A stretch of DNA of 64,000 bases, taken from Yuukianura sp. NJ FZ-2021. Its lineage: Eukaryota. The stretch covers positions 992,001-1,056,000 of the forward strand of contig CM102286.1 of assembly GCA_046563655.1 (NCBI GenBank), read 5' to 3'. Shown one piece after another: positions 17,782 to 29,364 of this stretch. A program made the position numbers and the translations under genes. Under the pieces are notes generated by a model that was given only the letters and a program-made list of their open reading frames with translations, made no database searches and was not told the DNA's origin. How positions within the stretch are numbered: position 1 is the stretch's first letter; each line of letters begins with the position of its first letter.

Positions 17782-19165
17782 TTCAAACTAATAATCTATA
17801 CACGGAGGATTTTAGGTTAGATTAATAAAACTGAATGTTAATTGTACAATCAAACAAGATCAAACTTCACTTTTTAATTAATTAAAATGAAAACAGCATA
17901 GAATCTATATAATTAAATATTTCCCACAGCTGTTTGAAATTTTGAATTTCCGCGACATTTCATGCAGCGACGGACGCAAAAGTTGAGTTTTTTCAACTCA
18001 TGCGATTTTGCGAAAATCGCATGACGGATCGACGTATCCGATTTTCGCATGCGTCGATCGCATTCCGGTTCACAATTGCTGACTGCAAGAAATCGCATGC
18101 GTCAGCGATTTTCGCATGACGCATGCAGTGGACGCAAACCGGTTCTCACACTTTCAATGCGAATTCGCATGCTGCATGCGAATTCGCATGCGATTGCAGT
18201 CATTGGGAATCAGACTTTACCTGGATCAGAGACATCTCCATTTTAGTTCGCTTCTTCTCCAAAGCCTCAGCTGCGGACAATATTGTACGATGTGTTGTCG
18301 TAACTTCGCAGGCAGTAATTGGTGTGGCACTTTGTGCAATTCCTGCTCAAGTCTACCGTGAAAGTTCAAAGTTACTGGAATTTTGGAAAAGGGAAACGGA
18401 TGGCATAGGAAACGTGTTGAATCGCCGAAGGATCTTGCGCAGTTTGGTACCATTTGGAACACATTGCGGCAACTTCTTTGTAATTCAACCAAAGACGAGA
18501 CTAACCTACCTTCGCATGGTATTTGACAACACTGTTTACGTGCTGTTAACATTCTAACTAAAAGTTGGTTTTTCCATAAAACACTTAAATAGTTTTCGAC
18601 GTCGTAGTTTGCAGGGTTGAAAACTGGACCTCGCAAATTGCGAAGTTTTTATTAGAAATAAAAATATTTTAAAGTGAGTCGTCGATAAAGCCGCATAAAT
18701 TTTGCAGTTTTCCTTGAAAAGGAACGACAGTTTTTTTTATTAGAAATTATGATATTAGTTATTAATTAACAAATAGATATTAGTTTATTAATAAATAAAA
18801 AATATTATAAAAAATATAATAATGTAATAATAATAATATGTGAATAATAATCAATCGCTTTTGTCCATATGTGGTGTGATCGGTTCTAGGTGTGTGTGAG
18901 TAAGCGTTTGTCAAACCTGAAAATTGTTGCTTGTTCTGTTTATGTTATGCTAATTAGGACGATTAACGACAGGAAGAGTTCAACTCGCATTGCAGTCGCA
19001 GTCGGAGAGCCAAGCGCCCTTTGTAAGTTCATAAACAGCTGCTTCCAGATTTTTAACGATTAGTTAGAAAGGTTAGTCTTGCAATTACTTAATATTGTAT
19101 CTGCATGGCTTTAATAATGCTGGTAAAAGATTGTTTTTGTAAATTCTAGATACCGTTTGGGGGTC

Positions 19166-22100
19166 ATGGCACACCGAGAATCAGGCGATGGCAGAGGCAG
19201 ATCAAGAACCACTGGTGACAACGACGGCGATGTAGAAGCAACGTTTCAAGAATACTTGAGACAATGTCAACAACAAGCTGCTGATGATGATACGGTAATT
19301 CGCACTGGAATAACTGTAGTTATTCATGAATACAATTATTATACACTGAATTTGTCTTTCGTAGCACTCTTCTCCTGGAACAAGCGAATCAAACTCTTCA
19401 GCATCTACGGTCATCGATGCATTTGCGAGAATGTCAACAAGAGATGATAATAGAAGCACCTTGCCCAATGAACCATCGCCATTTGCTTCCGGAGTTCCGC
19501 CGAGTCGTGGCAGAGGAAGGGGGAGTGGGAGACCCTTCGACACAGATTCGCACTCAGACTATTCTCCAGGAATGACCCCTCAGCCTAGGTCTCCCTCACA
19601 CATCTCACCGCCGCATGGTGGAGATCGTCCATCGTTTGGAGGTTTGTGATTTAGCATTGTATCATTCAAGGCACCGTGAAACGTGAATCTAACCGTACTT
19701 TTGTTTTACGACCAGGATCAAGTTTGGGCAGAGGTCGTGGTAGAGGCAGCACAGTATTTCCCGAGGCTGTTTTCAGACCAGCAGCGGAAATTCCTATTCC
19801 AGCCTTGAAGCCATCCAAAGGCAGAGGTCGCGGGACAGTTCGACACTTGACCTTGGACGAACCCGGCCCAGGCTTACCAGTAGTAGACCAACTTCCAAAT
19901 CCAGAACAGAGCATGGCACGTTATGATGACGCTCCAGAGCCTGAGCGTGAAACGATTATTCGAAAAGGAGACAAAGGAATAGTGTAAGATTTGTTACTGA
20001 ACAATGACTTTGGATATAATTTCATAGTAACTTTTTAACTTTGTTTTAGAATTCCGGTCACTGCCAACTTCATTCGTCTCGCCGTAGAAAAGGGACGCGG
20101 GCTTTTCATGTACCACGTAGACTTTGAGCCAGAGTTGGCATCAGTTCGTATGAGGCGGTACATGCTACAAGGTCACGATAATATCCTAGGAACAGTGCGA
20201 AACTTTGATGGGGCCAAATTGTACTTGCCGTTTCAGCTTCCTGACTACGAGGTTAACTTAACTCCTGTGATTTTCTTAATATTCCAATAAAGTCATGTTT
20301 ATTTTATTAGACTGTGCTGTACACGACACATCCGACGGAGATTCAACAAACTGTTACGATTACTATTCGTTTCATAAGAGAGAATCGCATGGATGAAAAT
20401 GTTCATTTTTACAACGTCTTATTTAGACGAATCATGGAGAAACTTGGAATGGAGGAAGTCAATCGTAACTTTTACGACTACAGAGCTCGGCATCGACTAC
20501 CAGTTCATAGGTTAGTTAACATCTTACACCAGAATTGACCATTTTCAAATATGATTTCTTATTGTACGAGGCAGACTGGAAATTTGGCCTGGCTATGTTA
20601 CAGCAGTGGATGAATTTGAAGGGGGACTCATGCTTTGCTGCGACGTTTCACACAGAGTGTTACGGACAGCGACTTTGCTGGATGTTTAGTAAGCGATACA
20701 TGACTCAACTCTGCTAAACTTGAATTGTAAAAGGTTGCTGTTGCAAATGTATGTTTAAATTGCTGTAGCAATGACATGCACCATGAAAACAGGGGTAACA
20801 CAGAAAGGTTTCGACAGATGTACCGAGATTATGTAGTGTCCAAAGTCGTCTTGACCAGATACAACCGAAAGAACTACAGAGTGGATGATGTTGATTTTAC
20901 ATTAAACCCACGATCAACGTTTGAATTGGGATCAGGAGAACGGGTAAGCTGCAAAAATACGTTGCAGAATCAAGTACTCTTAAATCTAAGTTGGCGATTG
21001 TTTACTTTTTTAGATTTCGTATGTGGAGTACTACAAAAATCAGTACAATATCACCATCACTGATCTGGACCAACCGCTGATAATTCACAAGCCAAGGCCT
21101 CCCAAAGTGCCTAGAAAAGACAGACGTCCAGTAAGTTCCAACAGAAGTGACTCTTCACTAAACAAAACGTTTTTACATCGATTTTTTGTCATTTCAAATC
21201 GATCTTTGTTTAATTTTAGGTTCTGGAACTTGTTTGTTTGATTCCTGAATGCTGCAATATGACTGGACTCACAGAAGAGTTGAAGAAAGACCACAAAGTG
21301 ATGCGAGATGTCGCCGAGCACACTCGTGTCCCACCGCATCGCAGAACTGTGGCAATCCAAGAGTTTGTCAAAACCGTAAAAGGTAAAGAGTTCAAAATAC
21401 TTTCCCATCTGCATATATTTTAAATCAACTTTGTTGCTTTGCTCTCTGTTTATAGCAAATCCAGAGGCTGCTGAGCTGTTGACAGGATGGGGCTTAGCTT
21501 TAGAAGATGCTACAATTGAATTACCCGCCAGACGTATAGCCCCACCGCACATTGTAATCAACCAAGGCAAAATTCTGACTAAACAGTTCGACTTTACTCG
21601 GGATGCTATGCAAAATCCATGCTTGGAGCCTGTAAGCCCTTCATGATTTTTTTTAAAGTTTAAAGAAATGATGAATTTTTCAATATTTTTTTCAGATTCA
21701 TGTCCGACAATGGGCAATCTTTTGTACTTCCTTTGACAGACCAAAAGCAGAGACATTTGTTGAGCACTACTTCATTGTGTGTCGGAATATTGGAATCAAT
21801 GTACTTGGGAATCCAAAAATTATACCAGTACATGGGCAACAAAGGCGTCTTGTCGAAAGTTTTTCTCGAACCATTATGGAAAACTTGACGAGCAATGTAA
21901 GTCACATGATTAATTTGTCTAAAAATTTTTCAGATTTTGAGAGTTAATTTTTATTTCTCATTTCAGCTCCAATTTGTTGTGGTGATCGTGCCAGCTGAGA
22001 TTGGCGAACTCTACGAATCTATCAAGAGAATTTGTTGCCTTGAACGTCCAATTCCATCTCAAGTTATTCTTGCCAAAACTCTGGGAAATGAACGTCAAGT

Positions 22101-23277
22101 GAGATCAATTGTGTCCAAAATCGCATTGCAAATTAATTGCAAGTTGGGAGGAGCTTTGTGGACAATACGAATTCCCCTGGTCAGTTTAACATCAATTGAA
22201 TCAACAAAATGTAAATTGACTTTCGTGATTGTGTATTTCAGGGTGAGAAGATTATGTTTGTGGGCATGGATGTTTACCACGATCCGAAACGACGGAATCC
22301 ATCGATTCTTGCTCTTGTTGCTTCGTTGAATGAGATGCAAACAAAATACTTTTCTCGAATTGTGTCTCAACGGCGTCACCAAGAAATCGGAGATTCTTTG
22401 AAATCAATTTTTGCTGATTGTCTCAAAACATTTCACAAGGTACAAAGTATTTATTTTGAAATCGACGTGACCTTGACCTTGCAATGTCATTTTGATCTTT
22501 GCAGTGTTCTGGAGTTCTACCAGACAGAATTGTTGTGTTTCGTGATGGAGTTGGGGATGGTCAGTTGGATCTTACAAAAGACACTGAAGTTGTGCAAATG
22601 TTGGACGTTCTGAACAGAATGTACACGGAAATGCCTAAATTCACTTTCACCATTGTCCAAAAACGAATATCGTGCAGGATTTATGGACAAGATGTAAATC
22701 GATTTACGATTTTCCAATTGGTTTGAGTTTTTATGAAAAAATTTTTCAAGAAAATATTGTTGTTTTTTCAACATTTCAGCCCGATACTGGCAGATTCGTG
22801 AACGCTCCTTCTGGAACAGTGCTGGATCACACCGTGACAAGGAAATACTTGTACGATTTCTTTTTGGTGTCACAACTTGTGTTGCAGGTCATTGTCAAAT
22901 GAAAGTATATGCTGTTTAATTATTTAACTTAATTATTTATTATATAATATTTGTTTTTTTTAATCAGGGAACCGTGAATCCTACACATTACATTGTACTA
23001 GAAGATATTGGGAATGTACAGCCAGATTTGATTCAGAAGTTTGCCTTTGCGACGTCCTTTCTGTACTACAATTGGGCAGCGCCAATTCGCGTTCCAGCCG
23101 TGTGTCAGGTAAAAAGTTTGATTTTTGAATTGGCTTGACATTGTACATTTTTTATGATTTTGCGTGACTTATGTTTTCCGAATGTTTCAGTACGCTCACA
23201 AGTTGGCATTCTTGGTTGGGCAGTACATCAAGGAAGCTCCAGCAGACGCTCTCAGTTGTCAACTGTACTACCTTTGA
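19166..23277 (+). CDS. AGO3: PIWI-clade Argonaute, Ago3/Piwil2-like, multi-exon
   Basis: N-terminal GRGRG motifs, WPGYVTAVDEFEGGLML, PAZ (VLTRYNRKNYRVDD), PSQV, QINCKLGGALW, catalytic GMDVYH / QEIGD / FRDGVGDG / YAHKLA, C-terminal LYYL*. Confidence 0.9.
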
Positions 23278-23622: not shown

Positions 23623-23636
23623 GATAGCGTGGCCGA
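23623..23636 (+). pseudogene. 5' fragment (nt 1-14) of an interrupted tRNA-Leu(AAG)
   Basis: GATAGCGTGGCCGA matches the tRNA-Leu 5' end. GATAGCG pairs with CGCTGTC at 26935-26941. Confidence 0.85.
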
Positions 23637-24210
23637 TTGACCACACGCCTGCGCCTCCAAACGCCCTGACACACTATGCGGCCATATTTTTCATTTAAAT
23701 GTATTTATTCTACCAAGACTAGGTTCGGTCATATCTTACCCAAATAAAATAAAAGTATAACAGGAAATGAAATCTAGTTATAACGCTAGTTGTGGATTCT
23801 AAAACAGTCTATAAAGCACTAGTATGGCTAAAACTCTAGGTAAACACTACAATATTGGATTGCAAAACTTATCCGTTCCAGTTCACTTGAGCAATATTCG
23901 TCGCCTAGCAGTCATTGTTCCTGTAACCTATTAGATTTACGGGAATAGTACTACAGAGCTCCACATTAATCTCTGAATTACTTAGGCCGACATAAATTCT
24001 AATATATTGGCTCACTAGAAACTTTAAGTAAATGGAACCATCTAAAGGAGCACGTTAAAGTTTAAGTTGAAGATCGCTACCATCACAAAACATTTAGGAA
24101 ATTAAACATACTAATGAGAAGGTTCGTATGATGTAGGACATCAGACTGTAACGTAACGAAAATCCAAGTTCAAAAAGCGGTCGTATCAACATCAATTGGC
24201 ATTTCCATGT

Positions 24211-26381
24211 TCAACTGCCTTCGAGACCTTCCACTAATGAATAGATTTCATATTCAGCTCCAAATTGATGTGCGTAGAGGTTGTGTACCAAATCCTGGTC
24301 TCGTTCGTTGTCCTTCACGTTGAAAAGATTGTTTATCAGCGAAATTGCGTACCCGCTTCCTTCAATTTCGGATTCTGGAGCTTTTCTTCGGAGGAGAAAA
24401 GCAATCATAGCGCACTGGATGGAGATTGATTCTATGCGGAGTCCGTTCTCTTTGGTCACTTTCAAAATCGGTTTTCTCTTCATTTCCTTCCCTTCGTCAA
24501 TTCCAATGTCGTTGCAATAGATATGAACCGAGTAAACTGGCGACGATGCGAGTGTTGCTGAAGTATGAGTCCTTGCGGAACGGTTAGATAGTTTGGCACC
24601 GATGTAATAACCGTCATATTTTGCTCGACTGTAGACGTACAAATCTTTGGATAAGTCAATCTCTTCAGTATTCCCAATCTTGATAAAAATCGGGTCCAAA
24701 TCAGTTCGAAGTGCAGGAAGTGGCTTTGATCTTAGGCCAACCTCAAATTCCTTCATGTACTTTGTCAATAATTCTCTATTTTTGGAAATGCAAATAGAGG
24801 TCATGAAGTTGATGAATTTTCCCCTCTCCTCGGGAAGATGTGACTTGAGATATGCTGCCGTCTAATATAAATAACCAACCTTGAATATAATCTTTGGCAG
24901 CACAACATATGGTATGAGGAGCTTAAGTTAATGCTAGTTCTTACAGAAATTGCTGCAAATTCACTCATAGCATCCTCCTTTGTCTCAAAAACCTTGACGA
25001 TGGGCGACCTTTGAGCTGCAACAGGACATTTTTGTTGAATAAGATATTTTGTGTTCTTCCACAAAAGTAGACTCTTAGTTTTGATTTCATCTGTAGCATA
25101 GAGTGACGTTGCCGCAAAGGACTGCGTGACCGCCGAGAAGAATGTCTTTCCTCGGTAACGGACAGAAATCCAAGCAACAGTGTAGCACTTGGTTGTGCCA
25201 CAACTTATACAGACAATCCTCTGTCCGTACCACCGCACATTTTTGTCATACGAAAAGCACTCTGCGTAAAAAATAAACAAACAATACATGAGATTGAGAT
25301 TACGTAAACTTAATGTTAACTGTTTAATTTGAGTAACCTTGGCAGAGATTGAAAGAGTGGTTGGATCCCCTGCAGACCAAATGCTTCAAACCCTGATCAC
25401 TCTTGCCAACTTTGAATCGCAGGTTAGGGTATTTCGGAAGAACAAAATTGCCCTTCAAGGCTAGACATTCTCTGTAGTGCCTAGGTTGTAGGACTCCAGT
25501 AAATGGTTGTTGTCGGCTCGCGCGTCTCAACTTAGTCAGAATACCCTTCGCCGCTAACGTGCCGATATGTTTGGTCGAATCTTAAACCAAAAAATGTTTG
25601 ATCTTTTGTTAATATTAATAAACTAGAAGTAAGTTTAATAAAGTTGAAATTATAGCATACTTGGCCTGTCATATTGCATTGAAAAACTCCGTCCTTTCTC
25701 CAAGATGTAGATGTTTGGTTCGTCCGTACTGATATCAAAGAAGTCGACGTCATCCGCCTAGAAATATAACACACCGCGCAGTTGAGTCATACGTATAAGT
25801 GTTATACCTTCAAACAAGAGCGTTTTTCAATAAAATCCAACGAGGTATTTGTTTTATGGTTTGTAGTTGCTGAAGTTAGTACCAATATTGCACAAATTGA
25901 GAGTACAACGCAACACGTTAATAGAAAAACTGGCTTCAAGCAAATGGTATGACTTTAATTAAATTTGTGTTGTCGCTTACCGCTGGCACTGGTGGGACGT
26001 ACCCCAAGGTCTCAGGAGTCTAATTAGAAAAACTTAAAACGTTACTGAGAGTCCATGGAATACCGCCATTTCATTTTTTTTTTGTAATTACCACTTCTAC
26101 CACATTTTGTGTGGCTATGTACTGTTCATCATCGTCCGTGTCTTGTGACACATCATGTTCTGACTGAAATACAAAAAGAAACAAACATATAACGTCATTC
26201 CCACAAGCACATTTAACAACTTTTGCTTAAATTGTATGAATCCCGCAATTAACCTTACCTCAAGAAGCCGACGACCCGACTTGTAAACACAAAACGGAAG
26301 AGTAAGATCTTCTTTTGCATATTCAACGCGGTCATCACTGGAGTCGTTCAATGTCGGATCGTCTTCGGCACTAGAAGACAT
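24211..26381 (-). CDS. Uncharacterised ~500-aa spliced protein inside the tRNA-inserted element
   Basis: In-frame GT..AG exon chain: acidic N-terminus (MSSSAEDD..), Cys/His cluster (LVCRGSNHSFNLCQEC..VCISCGTTKC), and a ~215-codon last exon. Small N-terminal exons are uncertain. Confidence 0.65.
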
Positions 26382-26571
26382 CTTGTTGAGGGATGACAGG
26401 AGAACCAACGGAGAATGACAATGGCAGCTCCGTTTCAAAAAAATGAACTTAAAAATTTAAACTTTAAATGCACTTTAGTTTTAGAAGAGATGAGAAGACG
26501 GAAGTTTTTTATTCGCTTACCATTAGAATTCATCACAGTAGAATCTTTTGAGACCACTTCCAGTACCGAAT

Positions 26572-26652
26572 GGGAGCGTAGCAAAGCGGTTAATGCGCTG
26601 GTTTAAGGCACCAGTCTCTTCGGAGGCGTGGGTTCGAGTCCCACCGCTCTCA
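26572..26652 (+). tRNA. tRNA-Leu(AAG), intact, carried within the element
   Basis: Acceptor GGGAGCG/CGCTCTC-A, A box TAGCAAAGCGG, anticodon arm CTGGT-TTAAGGC-ACCAG, long variable arm, B box GGTTCGAGTCC, downstream T-run terminator. Confidence 0.92.
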
Positions 26653-26875
26653 GTAAATTTTTTTTTTCAATTCTTTCAAACTTTTTTTAGCTCAAAATTG
26701 TTAATTTGTTACCGAAAAATTTTTAAACATTTAATTTAAGTTTGGTTTAATTTAAGTAGGATTTTTTGTTTGCTCCTTCACATTGCACATTCACTCCATA
26801 CTCTGCTTTTCTCATGACAAGGTCAGCATTTCATTTATTACTGAAATTTCATAAAAGTTCCCTGTGGGTCAATTA

Positions 26876-26942
26876 CGGTCTAAGGCGCCAGTTTAAGGCA
26901 CTGGTCTCTTCGGAGGCGTGGGTTCGAATCCCACCGCTGTCA
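26876..26942 (+). pseudogene. 3' portion of the interrupted host tRNA-Leu(AAG)
   Basis: CGGTCTAAGGCGCCAGTTTAAGGCACTGG...GGTTCGAATCCCACCGCTGTCA plus a T-run. The first ~15 nt are missing locally. Confidence 0.9.
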
Positions 26943-27119
26943 CACTTTTTTGCTTTAATTTTTTCATTTTTGATACCCCAGCAGAATTTAAGGTTACCGC
27001 CAAGCGATTTTTCAGAAGAATTTACAAAGCCCGATTTGATTTGATATTTTTCATTCCGGTGCGGAAAAAAAATCTTGCTTCCGTCTACCTCTTTACGCCT
27101 CCATAATTATTGTGAAAGG

Positions 27120-27402
27120 TGAATTAAATTTCCCCGATTAACTTCTCGCCGTTTAAAGTTTCCCCAATTAACTTTTCGCCGTTTAAATTTTCCCCAATTA
27201 ACTTTTCGCCGTTTAAAATCCCCCCAGTTAACTTTTCCCCGTTTAAAATCCCCCCAATTACATTTTCCCCGTTTAAAGTTCCCCCAATTAACTTTTCCCG
27301 TTTTAAATTTTCGCCAATTAAGTATTCGCCAATTGCTAAATTGGCGAAAGTTAAAGTTTTTAATTGGGGAAACTTTAATTGGCGGGGGAAAGTTTAATTA
27401 GT
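27120..27402. repeat. Tandem ~15/30-bp array (ccccaattaacttttcgccgtttaaa) followed by inverted copies; MITE-like
   Basis: About 7 direct 30-bp units, then reverse-complement units (taattggggaaactttaattggcg). Confidence 0.8.
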
Positions 27403-27614: not shown

Positions 27615-29364
27615 ATGTTTTTCAAAATTTTAATTATTGCTGTTTTCGCAAATTCTGCAAATGGATTTCAGTTGATTCGTGAAGAAATGGTTGTGTCTTC
27701 ATCTGAATTAACAGTTTTTACTCTCTCACCATCGTTGTTTCATTGGGAATGGACTCCAGGTGAAAAGTTTCTTTAAAAAACAACTTTTTAAAAATTTTAA
27801 ACAAAATTTTTAACTTTTTGTCAAAGCAGAAATCGTCAAACAAATTGAATACTTCCCAAGAAAGGCCGAAGCAGCAGATCTTCCAGCATGGCTTCACTAC
27901 ACATACGACGAAGTGACATCCGTTGGACACCTTTATGGCACACCACCACAGGAAACCATGGTCGTGTCCATTGACGTTGTCGCCGTCAATCGAAACTTCA
28001 GTTTTGACGTGCGTCAACTCACTTTGACGTTGAACGTTATTCCTCAACCACCACTGGACTACGTCGTGGAACTCAAAATTGATAACATGGAGCCCAGACA
28101 TTTTTGCAACACCAAAGAAATTTTGCGACTTGCAAAAACTTTTAGCAAATTCCTGGATTGGCACTACAAAGACGGCAGTCCAGCTACGCCTGTATATTTG
28201 GCATCACCAAATGACGTTGGAGAAATTGACTTTTCCCGGTCATATGGAGCTCAAGGGTAAGAATAAATTTTCAATTTTGACAAATTTCAAATTTTCTAAA
28301 ATTTTCAAAAAACTTTTCTTGAAGTGTCATCATTCACCTTGGCTCGGACATGAACTTCAGTACAGAGATGATCAAATTGCAGAATGAGGTTTTGCCACTA
28401 GCAAAACTTCGTCCATGTCCTCAAAATTTGAAACGGACGTCAGTTGAAAAGTATTTCAGAAGTCAGCGCATGATTGTAGACTGGTGTTCGTTCAAATTGA
28501 AATACAATAATGACCTTAACTCAACATCGGGGTCAGAGGTCAATCCAGGTCAAGATGAGCAAGAATTTGGAGACTTTTCTAAACAAATTCCACCACTAAG
28601 GACGTCGCTTCCAGAAAAAAGCTACACGAGCACAGTCCTTTTGGTTACGATTGTTCCAGCGACGCTCGCTTCACTAATCACGGTCATCCTCATTGGAATT
28701 TTTTGGAACGACGAAGATGAGACGCTTCCAGTGTAAGAAAAAAAAATTGACATCAAAAACTTTCAAATTTTTATGCTTTTTAAAAAATTATCTTTGTTTG
28801 CTCAAACAGGAACGGAGACATTTTATTTTTTGAAACCGCGTTTCGAATACTTTTCATTTTGTTCAGGTTTCTCTATTTTTTTTTATTTCTTAATTAATTT
28901 ATTAATTAATTAAGCCACGCGCTGTTAAAAAAAAATTCCCAGAGAAAATTTGATAAAACCTGGATTATATTTTTTGTTTTGAAAACAAGTTTTAATTTTT
29001 GTTTGTGATTGTGTGACGTTAGTTGCAAAAGTGAGACGCAGTACTACAATGACATTGAAGATACCGCATTGGCCAGAAGTGGGCCTGCTGGAACCAGTTA
29101 CCAACCGTATCAAGATGTAACTGTGGGTGATGATGATGACAACTTTTTTCTCATTACTGGAGACGAGTCCAGGCATGACCCTGAGGATGACCTTCGACCT
29201 CAAGCCAGAGAAGATCCACTTCCACAGTACAGGCATGTGGCTCCTCCCGCTGTGCATCCAAAGTAAGCAACAAACATAACTTTTTAGCATAAAAATATAT
29301 ATAAAAAAATTTTATTTTTAAATTATTTCGCAGTGGGAGTCCCGCCCTCACCTACGCCGTTTAA
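27615..29364 (+). CDS. Alpha/epsilon-sarcoglycan
   Basis: Signal peptide, cadherin-like DLPAWLHY..GHLYGTP, CP..DWCSFKL, a single TM helix, and a cytoplasmic tail ending LTYAV*. Confidence 0.85.

Follow-up and report, generated by a model that had tools for sequence, protein, structure and literature searches.

Among published elements, the nearest kind to the insertion described here is the Dada transposons, at least as they appear in the portions of the primary reports on which we draw. There they are cut-and-paste elements directed at multicopy small-RNA genes (Kojima & Jurka 2013, PMC3706591; Kojima 2022, PMC8869645). They insert within snRNA genes and tRNA genes, tRNA-Leu among the latter, and for one lineage the target is TGGCCG at tRNA positions 8-13 (PMC3706591, PMC8869645). 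The same portions describe duplications of 6-7 bp, a large transposase of the DDE type bearing a C/DxxH signature and no terminal inverted repeats (PMC3706591, PMC8869645), and one of them mentions the target-specific CryptonV (PMC8869645). Elements that sit inside multicopy RNA genes are of wider use as models for safe-harbour insertion. In prokaryotes, integration into tRNA genes, which are restored in the process, is the work of elements that rely on a tyrosine or serine integrase, carry only the duplicated part of the tRNA at attP and leave direct repeats. Homing endonuclease genes form a further point of reference, as do engineered homing drives whose rescue copies are recoded to be resistant, and tRNA genes themselves are known fragile sites. 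Full-text searches, which did not extend to subscription-only papers or Repbase reports, turned up no eukaryotic element that both targets tRNA genes and carries a tRNA of its own.

Here we analyzed a 64-kb stretch of animal nuclear DNA (the window; approximately 36-39% GC), in which ARAGORN recognized one intact tRNA, a tRNA-Leu(AAG). This tRNA lies inside a 3239-bp unit that separates the two halves of another tRNA-Leu(AAG) gene; we refer to the intact copy as the cargo tRNA and to the split one as the host tRNA. The locus is arranged as follows:

About 19000-23140, plus strand: multi-exon PIWI-clade Argonaute gene (last exon against solved Piwi proteins, E down to 7e-11)
23623-23636, plus strand: 5' fragment of the host tRNA-Leu(AAG), GATAGCGTGGCCGA, located by word search and comprising the 5' strand of the acceptor stem, U8 and the 5' strand of the D-stem to A14
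23637-26875, no strand assigned: inserted unit of 3239 bp, whose removal restores the host tRNA
26876-26942, plus strand: 3' fragment of the host tRNA-Leu(AAG), which opens with CGGTCTAAGGC and runs from the D-loop CGG to discriminator A73
27814-28736, plus strand: exons of an alpha/epsilon-sarcoglycan gene (Pfam Sarcoglycan_2 and Sarcoglycan_2_C, E 3e-12 and 2e-12)

The 3239-bp unit precisely interrupts a canonical animal tRNA-Leu(AAG) gene within its D-loop. The 5' half of this gene did not figure in the original prediction. The word TGGCCGA occurs four times on the two strands of the window, and only at 23623-23636 do all seven of the preceding bases pair with the 3' strand of the acceptor stem in 26876-26942 (7/7), a match that we estimate would arise by chance with a probability of about 5e-4. 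When the two halves were joined in a script, the product was an 81-nt tRNA-Leu(AAG) that ARAGORN accepted. The insertion point falls between A14 and CGG, inside the near-palindrome GGCCGA/CGGTC, and the GC content of the insert (0.389) is similar to that of its flanks (0.374 and 0.377). Every stem of the host 3' fragment is still perfectly paired, and the fragment is followed by a T6 run at 26946-26951. Because this dead half keeps every stem paired, the insertion event appears to be recent. The original prediction, that the intact tRNA is the cargo of an element lodged within a host tRNA, is thus supported at this one locus by the precise interruption. A split or permuted tRNA gene and homology-driven gene conversion from a paralogous tRNA were both considered and rejected, given that both 3' parts are present and that the cargo tRNA lies within the insert, 223 bp from its right end.

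On the left, the exons of the PIWI-clade gene stop near 23138, which leaves about 480 bp to the split tRNA; the proximity of a piRNA-pathway gene to a possible mobile element is probably a coincidence. On the right, the host gene next to the tRNA locus is that for alpha/epsilon-sarcoglycan. Between it and the interrupted tRNA, beginning 180 bp downstream of the latter, lies a tandem array (27122-27334) of 6.8 copies of a 30-nt unit with 86% matches, a sub-period of 15 nt and the consensus AAATTTCCCCAATTAACTTTTCGCCGTTTA; an inverted 25-nt copy of the unit is found just past the array, at 27360-27384.

The insert is bordered by GGCCGA on its left and by CGGTCT on its right, and we found no target-site duplication of 6-8 bp at these junctions, where an overlap of at most 1-3 nt (A or ATT) is possible. 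Compared to the canonical eukaryotic Leu D-loop, which we take to be GCCGAGCGG, the host halves lack one G (G15). The original prediction had placed a G between GCCGA and CGG in the host sequence, and in this respect it has to be corrected, as the host halves in the window contain no G there. The missing duplication is unusual for a DDE transposon and, together with the lost G15, also fits capture by end joining. Nor do tRNA-derived direct repeats of the attL/attR core type flank the insert, its junctions sharing at most the possible 3-nt ATT. If this ATT is instead taken as a 3-nt overlap or duplication at an alternative border, the circular junction becomes a perfect palindrome, GGTCAATTGACC, and the restored tRNA is still accepted by ARAGORN, with an oddly long D-loop. 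The ends of the insert read:

23637-23646, plus strand: left terminus, TTGACCACAC, related to the right terminus as a short, imperfect inverted repeat
26863-26875, plus strand: right terminus, TGTGGGTCAATTA, whose GGTCAA complements the left TTGACC exactly

Aligned with the reverse complement of the right terminus (TTGACCCACA), the left terminus TTGACCACAC matches at 9 of 10 positions with one gap, a score that was equalled by 1.5% of 20000 random 16-mer pairs drawn from the window (p about 0.015). With a length of only about 10 nt, this apparent inverted repeat is suggestive, not strong. The last three nucleotides of the right terminus (TTA) may be filler or part of the 3-nt ATT overlap.

Most of the insert is taken up by a single gene that runs opposite to both tRNAs:

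24211-26381, minus strand: seven-exon gene with a CDS of 1542 nt encoding 513 aa (gene model; six introns, all GT-AG, with the frame kept)
26381-26259, 26163-26092, 26019-25981 and 25757-25661, minus strand: exons 1-4 of this gene (gene model)
25580-25338, 25261-24945 and 24861-24211, minus strand: exons 5-7, stop codon included (gene model)
23704-23709, minus strand: candidate AATAAA poly(A) signal, picked out by eye, about 70 nt from the left end of the insert

The gene is intact: its introns measure 72-223 nt and its CDS holds no internal stop, with 574 nt of non-coding sequence between the stop codon and the left end of the insert. The first 100 residues of the protein are strongly acidic (net charge -20), and a CxxC-17-CxxC zinc ribbon lies at aa 190-212. 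This ribbon region accounts for the sole feature seen by any library, a weak Pfam match to Zn_ribbon_IS1595 that scored 17.8 bits and thus fell below the cut-off of 25.4 bits.

Homology searches were carried out with parts of the 513-aa protein, namely the three large exons, the ORF holding exon 6, the 216-aa last exon and the long ORFs. In these exon-wise queries, no transposase, recombinase or nuclease domain was found in Pfam, PHROGs, NCBIfam or the sequences of the PDB. Among Pfam families, the three large exons matched no DDE or tyrosine/serine recombinase family at E values up to 10, and none of the long ORFs matched a tyrosine/serine recombinase family at E values up to 0.1. For the last exon, LAGLIDADG, GIY-YIG, HNH, His-Cys and PD-(D/E)xK nucleases were likewise absent from the matches in Pfam, PHROGs, NCBIfam, PDB sequences and phage tblastn; the tblastn search of phage genomes gave one match at E=2, to a hypothetical protein. 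When the 194-aa ORF that holds exon 6 was compared with 1.84 billion representatives by phmmer, there were no hits; the 216-aa last exon had no relatives among longer and similar-length proteins in word-indexed searches, and a scan of viral-contig proteins for relatives of the 513-aa protein was negative as well. This absence of homologues makes the gene unlike a conserved host gene and is typical of lineage-restricted selfish genes. An AlphaFold model of the last exon alone was unusable (pLDDT 33). Several motifs noticed by eye in that exon (GIY..YIG-like at aa 373-387, DDE-like, GIDxG-like and PD-(D/E)xK-like) were dismissed, being mutually exclusive and lacking support from any tool. We also rejected a guide or structured RNA of the TnpB/Fanzor type in the non-coding ends, which fold no better than shuffled sequences (z=+0.66 for the 574-nt left end and z=+0.64 for the 223-nt right end) and go with a domain order that does not fit.

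The cargo tRNA lies next to this gene, 190 bp away and divergent from it, and has the same orientation as the host tRNA:

26572-26652 (26571-26653 in ARAGORN), plus strand: intact cargo tRNA-Leu(AAG) (ARAGORN; Rfam tRNA)
26658-26667, plus strand: T10 run of the Pol III terminator type, after the cargo tRNA

The presence of an intact tRNA-Leu(AAG) at this position, as originally predicted, was confirmed by ARAGORN and by the Rfam tRNA model (57.7 bits against a gathering score of 29). Its cloverleaf is fully paired, with seven pairs in the acceptor stem (one of them G.U), three in the D-stem and five each in the anticodon and T-stems. The D-arm reads GTAGCAAAGCGGTTAATGC, just as had been stated, and the claim that the A-box is kept also stands: the box words TAGCAAAGCGG (A-box) and GGTTCGAGTCC (B-box) are both present. 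Oligo-T is the rule for Pol III termination, and the T10 run follows the tRNA. In silico, the paired stems, the Rfam score, the box words and the T10 run together support the earlier suggestion that the cargo tRNA is functional.

In an exact-word scan of metagenome contigs, the 19-mer of the cargo D-arm occurred in 10 stretches, six of which carried tRNAs according to ARAGORN. These tRNAs have other identities (e.g. Asn-GTT, Leu-TAA and Leu-CAA) and resemble the cargo in the D-arm only; none of the 10 stretches contained a tRNA-Leu(AAG). To judge from these matches, the cargo D-arm is a generic, workable arm and not an exotic one in tRNA space. Two of the contigs (L004, 1055-2068, and L007, 1215-2228) share a dense, partly overlapping cluster of six short tRNA genes (Pro, Gln, Asn, Leu-TAG, Ala and Leu-TAA), in which the Leu-TAA has the exact 19-nt D-arm and whose layout looks organellar or phage-like. 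On another contig, L003 (155 kb), ARAGORN called a 93-nt tRNA with a four-base anticodon (aagg) at 1637-1729, within a viral-type array of eight tRNAs.

Aligned with the host tRNA, the cargo differs in 14 of 82 columns, made up of 12 substitutions and two single-base indels. Nine of the substitutions lie in stems, at the following pairs:

Pair 2-71: G.U in the cargo, A-U in the host, changed on one side
Pair 3-70: G-C in the cargo, U.G in the host, changed on both sides
Pair 12-23: A-U in the cargo, C-G in the host, changed on both sides
Pair 28-42: U-A in the cargo, C-G in the host, changed on both sides
Pair 29-41: G-C in the cargo, A-U in the host, changed on both sides

Pairing survives every one of these substitutions, and at four pairs, including two of the anticodon stem, a change on one side is compensated by a change on the other. 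The alignment thereby bears out the predicted change of pair 12-23 from C-G to A-U, and the changes in the acceptor stem are paired as had been proposed (G.U against A-U at 2-71, G-C against U.G at 3-70). Of the remaining three substitutions, one affects position 9, one position 13, which is unpaired in either tRNA, and one a base of the T-loop. Near-identity from the anticodon loop to the T arm, another element of the original prediction, applies to the anticodon loop, the variable arm and the T-stem, in which the two tRNAs are identical, and does not extend to pairs 28-42 and 29-41 or to the T-loop base. Since the changes keep all stems paired, we provisionally regard the cargo as a working tRNA gene, and the overall pattern looks like that of two functional tRNA lineages, not that of a gene and its decaying copy.

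At the target itself, the left half-site GGCCGA reads AGCAAA in the cargo. The CCG..CGG palindrome had been described as destroyed in the cargo copy; this holds for its left arm, which is gone (AGCAAAGCGG), while the right half CGGT is kept. Of the 13 columns that lie no more than 6 nt from the insertion point, 5 differ between cargo and host, compared to 9 of 69 elsewhere (Fisher p=0.04), and for the D-arm as a whole the enrichment has p=0.09. The proposal that the cargo was recoded exactly at the insertion target is accordingly not sustained: the 12 substitutions and two indels are distributed across the tRNA, with weak enrichment near the target. Because this divergence is spread over four stems, the cargo has the look of an isodecoder that has long evolved on its own, and not that of a product of target-only recoding. 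In summary, the observation behind the original prediction is confirmed with corrections, and its interpretation is partly supported; the proposed immunity of the cargo to self-insertion, in the manner of recoded homing targets, would be one way to read the altered half-site.

We give about an even chance to the reading that the insert is a low-copy, site-specific mobile element that carries a replacement tRNA free of the target. This reading is favoured because of the precise interruption, the undecayed host halves, the compact content of one gene plus one tRNA, the inverted termini and the anticodon match; for an arbitrary tRNA gene, we estimate that a cargo anticodon equal to that of the split gene would be expected in a few per cent of cases. 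From this combination we infer mobility, a role for the protein, compensation and immunity, as follows. A compact 3.24-kb unit would insert into the D-loop of tRNA-Leu(AAG), within the near-palindrome GGCCGA/CGGTC, and the 513-aa zinc-ribbon protein would be the enzyme that recognizes the palindrome and cuts or joins there. The cargo tRNA would replace the decoding capacity of the tRNA gene that the element destroys, and would itself presumably not be a substrate for the enzyme, having exchanged GGCCGA for AGCAAA in the left half-site with pair 12-23 compensated. Provided that the enzyme does recognize the palindrome, the element would in time destroy any cargo that is susceptible to it, and by this selection argument a cargo that persists must lack the site. 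The complete mechanism, self-immune and self-compensating, with an orphan zinc-ribbon enzyme, a D-loop palindrome as target, no duplication and a rewritten replacement tRNA, we put forward only tentatively. Within the 64-kb window, blastn and tblastn found no second copy of the insert, and there were no further copies of the element in the metagenome, viral-contig and protein collections searched. In the viral contigs, one of the two junction words had no match and the other had six, all without a tRNA and hence attributable to chance. Sequencing runs that contain the stretch comprised four runs of one sample and one small-share run of another organism, with no RNA run among them.

The main rival is a one-off capture, in which end-joining repair of a broken tRNA gene trapped 3.2 kb of host DNA with a lineage-specific gene and a neighbouring isodecoder, and in which neither mobility nor immunity plays a part. 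We consider this possible but unlikely. It would account for the lack of a target duplication, the one base that was apparently lost and the three possibly untemplated bases (TTA) at the right junction, and it agrees with the single copy in the window, with the failure to find a mobile-element domain in the protein and with the established fragility of tRNA genes. However, it would make the shared isoacceptor identity of insert and target a coincidence of a few per cent, and it sits poorly with the inverted-repeat termini (p about 0.015), with the neat bounds around a complete gene, including its 5' and 3' regions, and a complete tRNA gene, and with a protein that has no homologues, as is often the case for selfish genes.

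Two further readings keep the element mobile and differ in what they make of its parts. One is that the tRNA is a passenger or has some other role, for example an insulator or Pol III function that serves the element gene, so that the change in the D-arm has nothing to do with immunity. The divergence, which extends across the acceptor, D and anticodon stems and into the T-loop with only weak enrichment near the target, is consistent with such a passenger, as is the generic nature of an arm whose 19 nt recur in unrelated microbial or phage-type tRNAs. The identity of the cargo and target anticodons argues against it, and so does the argument from selection given above, by which susceptible cargo would be lost; we therefore regard this reading as quite improbable. 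The other is that the insert belongs to a divergent Dada or another DDE family, with a transposase too diverged to detect and a target duplication that was lost or replaced. In its favour, Dada elements insert in tRNA genes including tRNA-Leu, one lineage at TGGCCG (both from the portions of PMC3706591 and PMC8869645 on which we draw), and odd junctions have a precedent there in Dada-tA, whose flanks mismatch the original target. A beta-beta-beta-alpha-beta order, D..D..E candidates and one DxxH can also be picked out in the last exon, by visual pattern matching only. On the other hand, the junctions have no 6-7 bp duplication, no similar protein was found and no Pfam DDE family matched at E values up to 10; Dada elements lack terminal inverted repeats, and the same portions of the two papers do not state that they carry tRNA cargo (PMC3706591, PMC8869645). 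Taken together, this makes the Dada or DDE reading very unlikely, and membership in Dada proper was rejected on the absent 6-7 bp duplication and on the lack of a DDE transposase detectable in the exon-wise queries.

If the insert was captured once, the locus records an ordinary rearrangement. If the reading as a self-compensating mobile element is true, it represents a previously undescribed selfish element of animals and a natural counterpart of the engineered-drive principle of cleaving a target and rescuing it with a recoded copy. Should further copies confirm it, the locus would be a natural example, in the nuclear genome of an animal, of disruption coupled to rescue, and would bring to light a new DNA enzyme specific for a defined tRNA site of 12 bp, for which the cargo D-arm is a ready negative control. 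Confirmed copies would also point to a route for the origin and spread of odd tRNA isodecoders.

Compared to the known systems, the insert resembles Dada in being a eukaryotic DNA element in a multicopy small-RNA gene, and in both the coding strand can oppose the RNA gene; it differs from Dada, as far as the available portions of those reports describe it, in having no 6-7 bp duplication, a 513-aa orphan protein, short inverted termini and a tRNA of its own. With Cryptons, DNA transposons that use a tyrosine recombinase, it shares the lack of a target duplication and, for some families, site specificity. Unlike them, no tyrosine recombinase was detected in the insert, and Cryptons have no terminal inverted repeats and reported targets that are microsatellites and not tRNA genes. 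The integrative elements and prophages of prokaryotes also insert into tRNA genes with element sequence that keeps the function of the tRNA available, whereas no integrase domain was found in the insert, which has no flanking direct repeats derived from the tRNA and carries a whole, separate tRNA gene. Homing elements are similar in their precise, duplication-free insertion at a conserved, partly palindromic site and in a carried copy of the target without the recognition sequence, and here, too, the occupied host site is necessarily destroyed by the insertion. The insert differs from them in that no homing-nuclease domain was detected in it and that it is neither an intron nor an intein and would have homology arms of only 14 and 67 nt between dispersed tRNA genes. 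If it is mobile, the insert is a new variant among RNA-gene-specific elements, one that carries its own target-free replacement tRNA.
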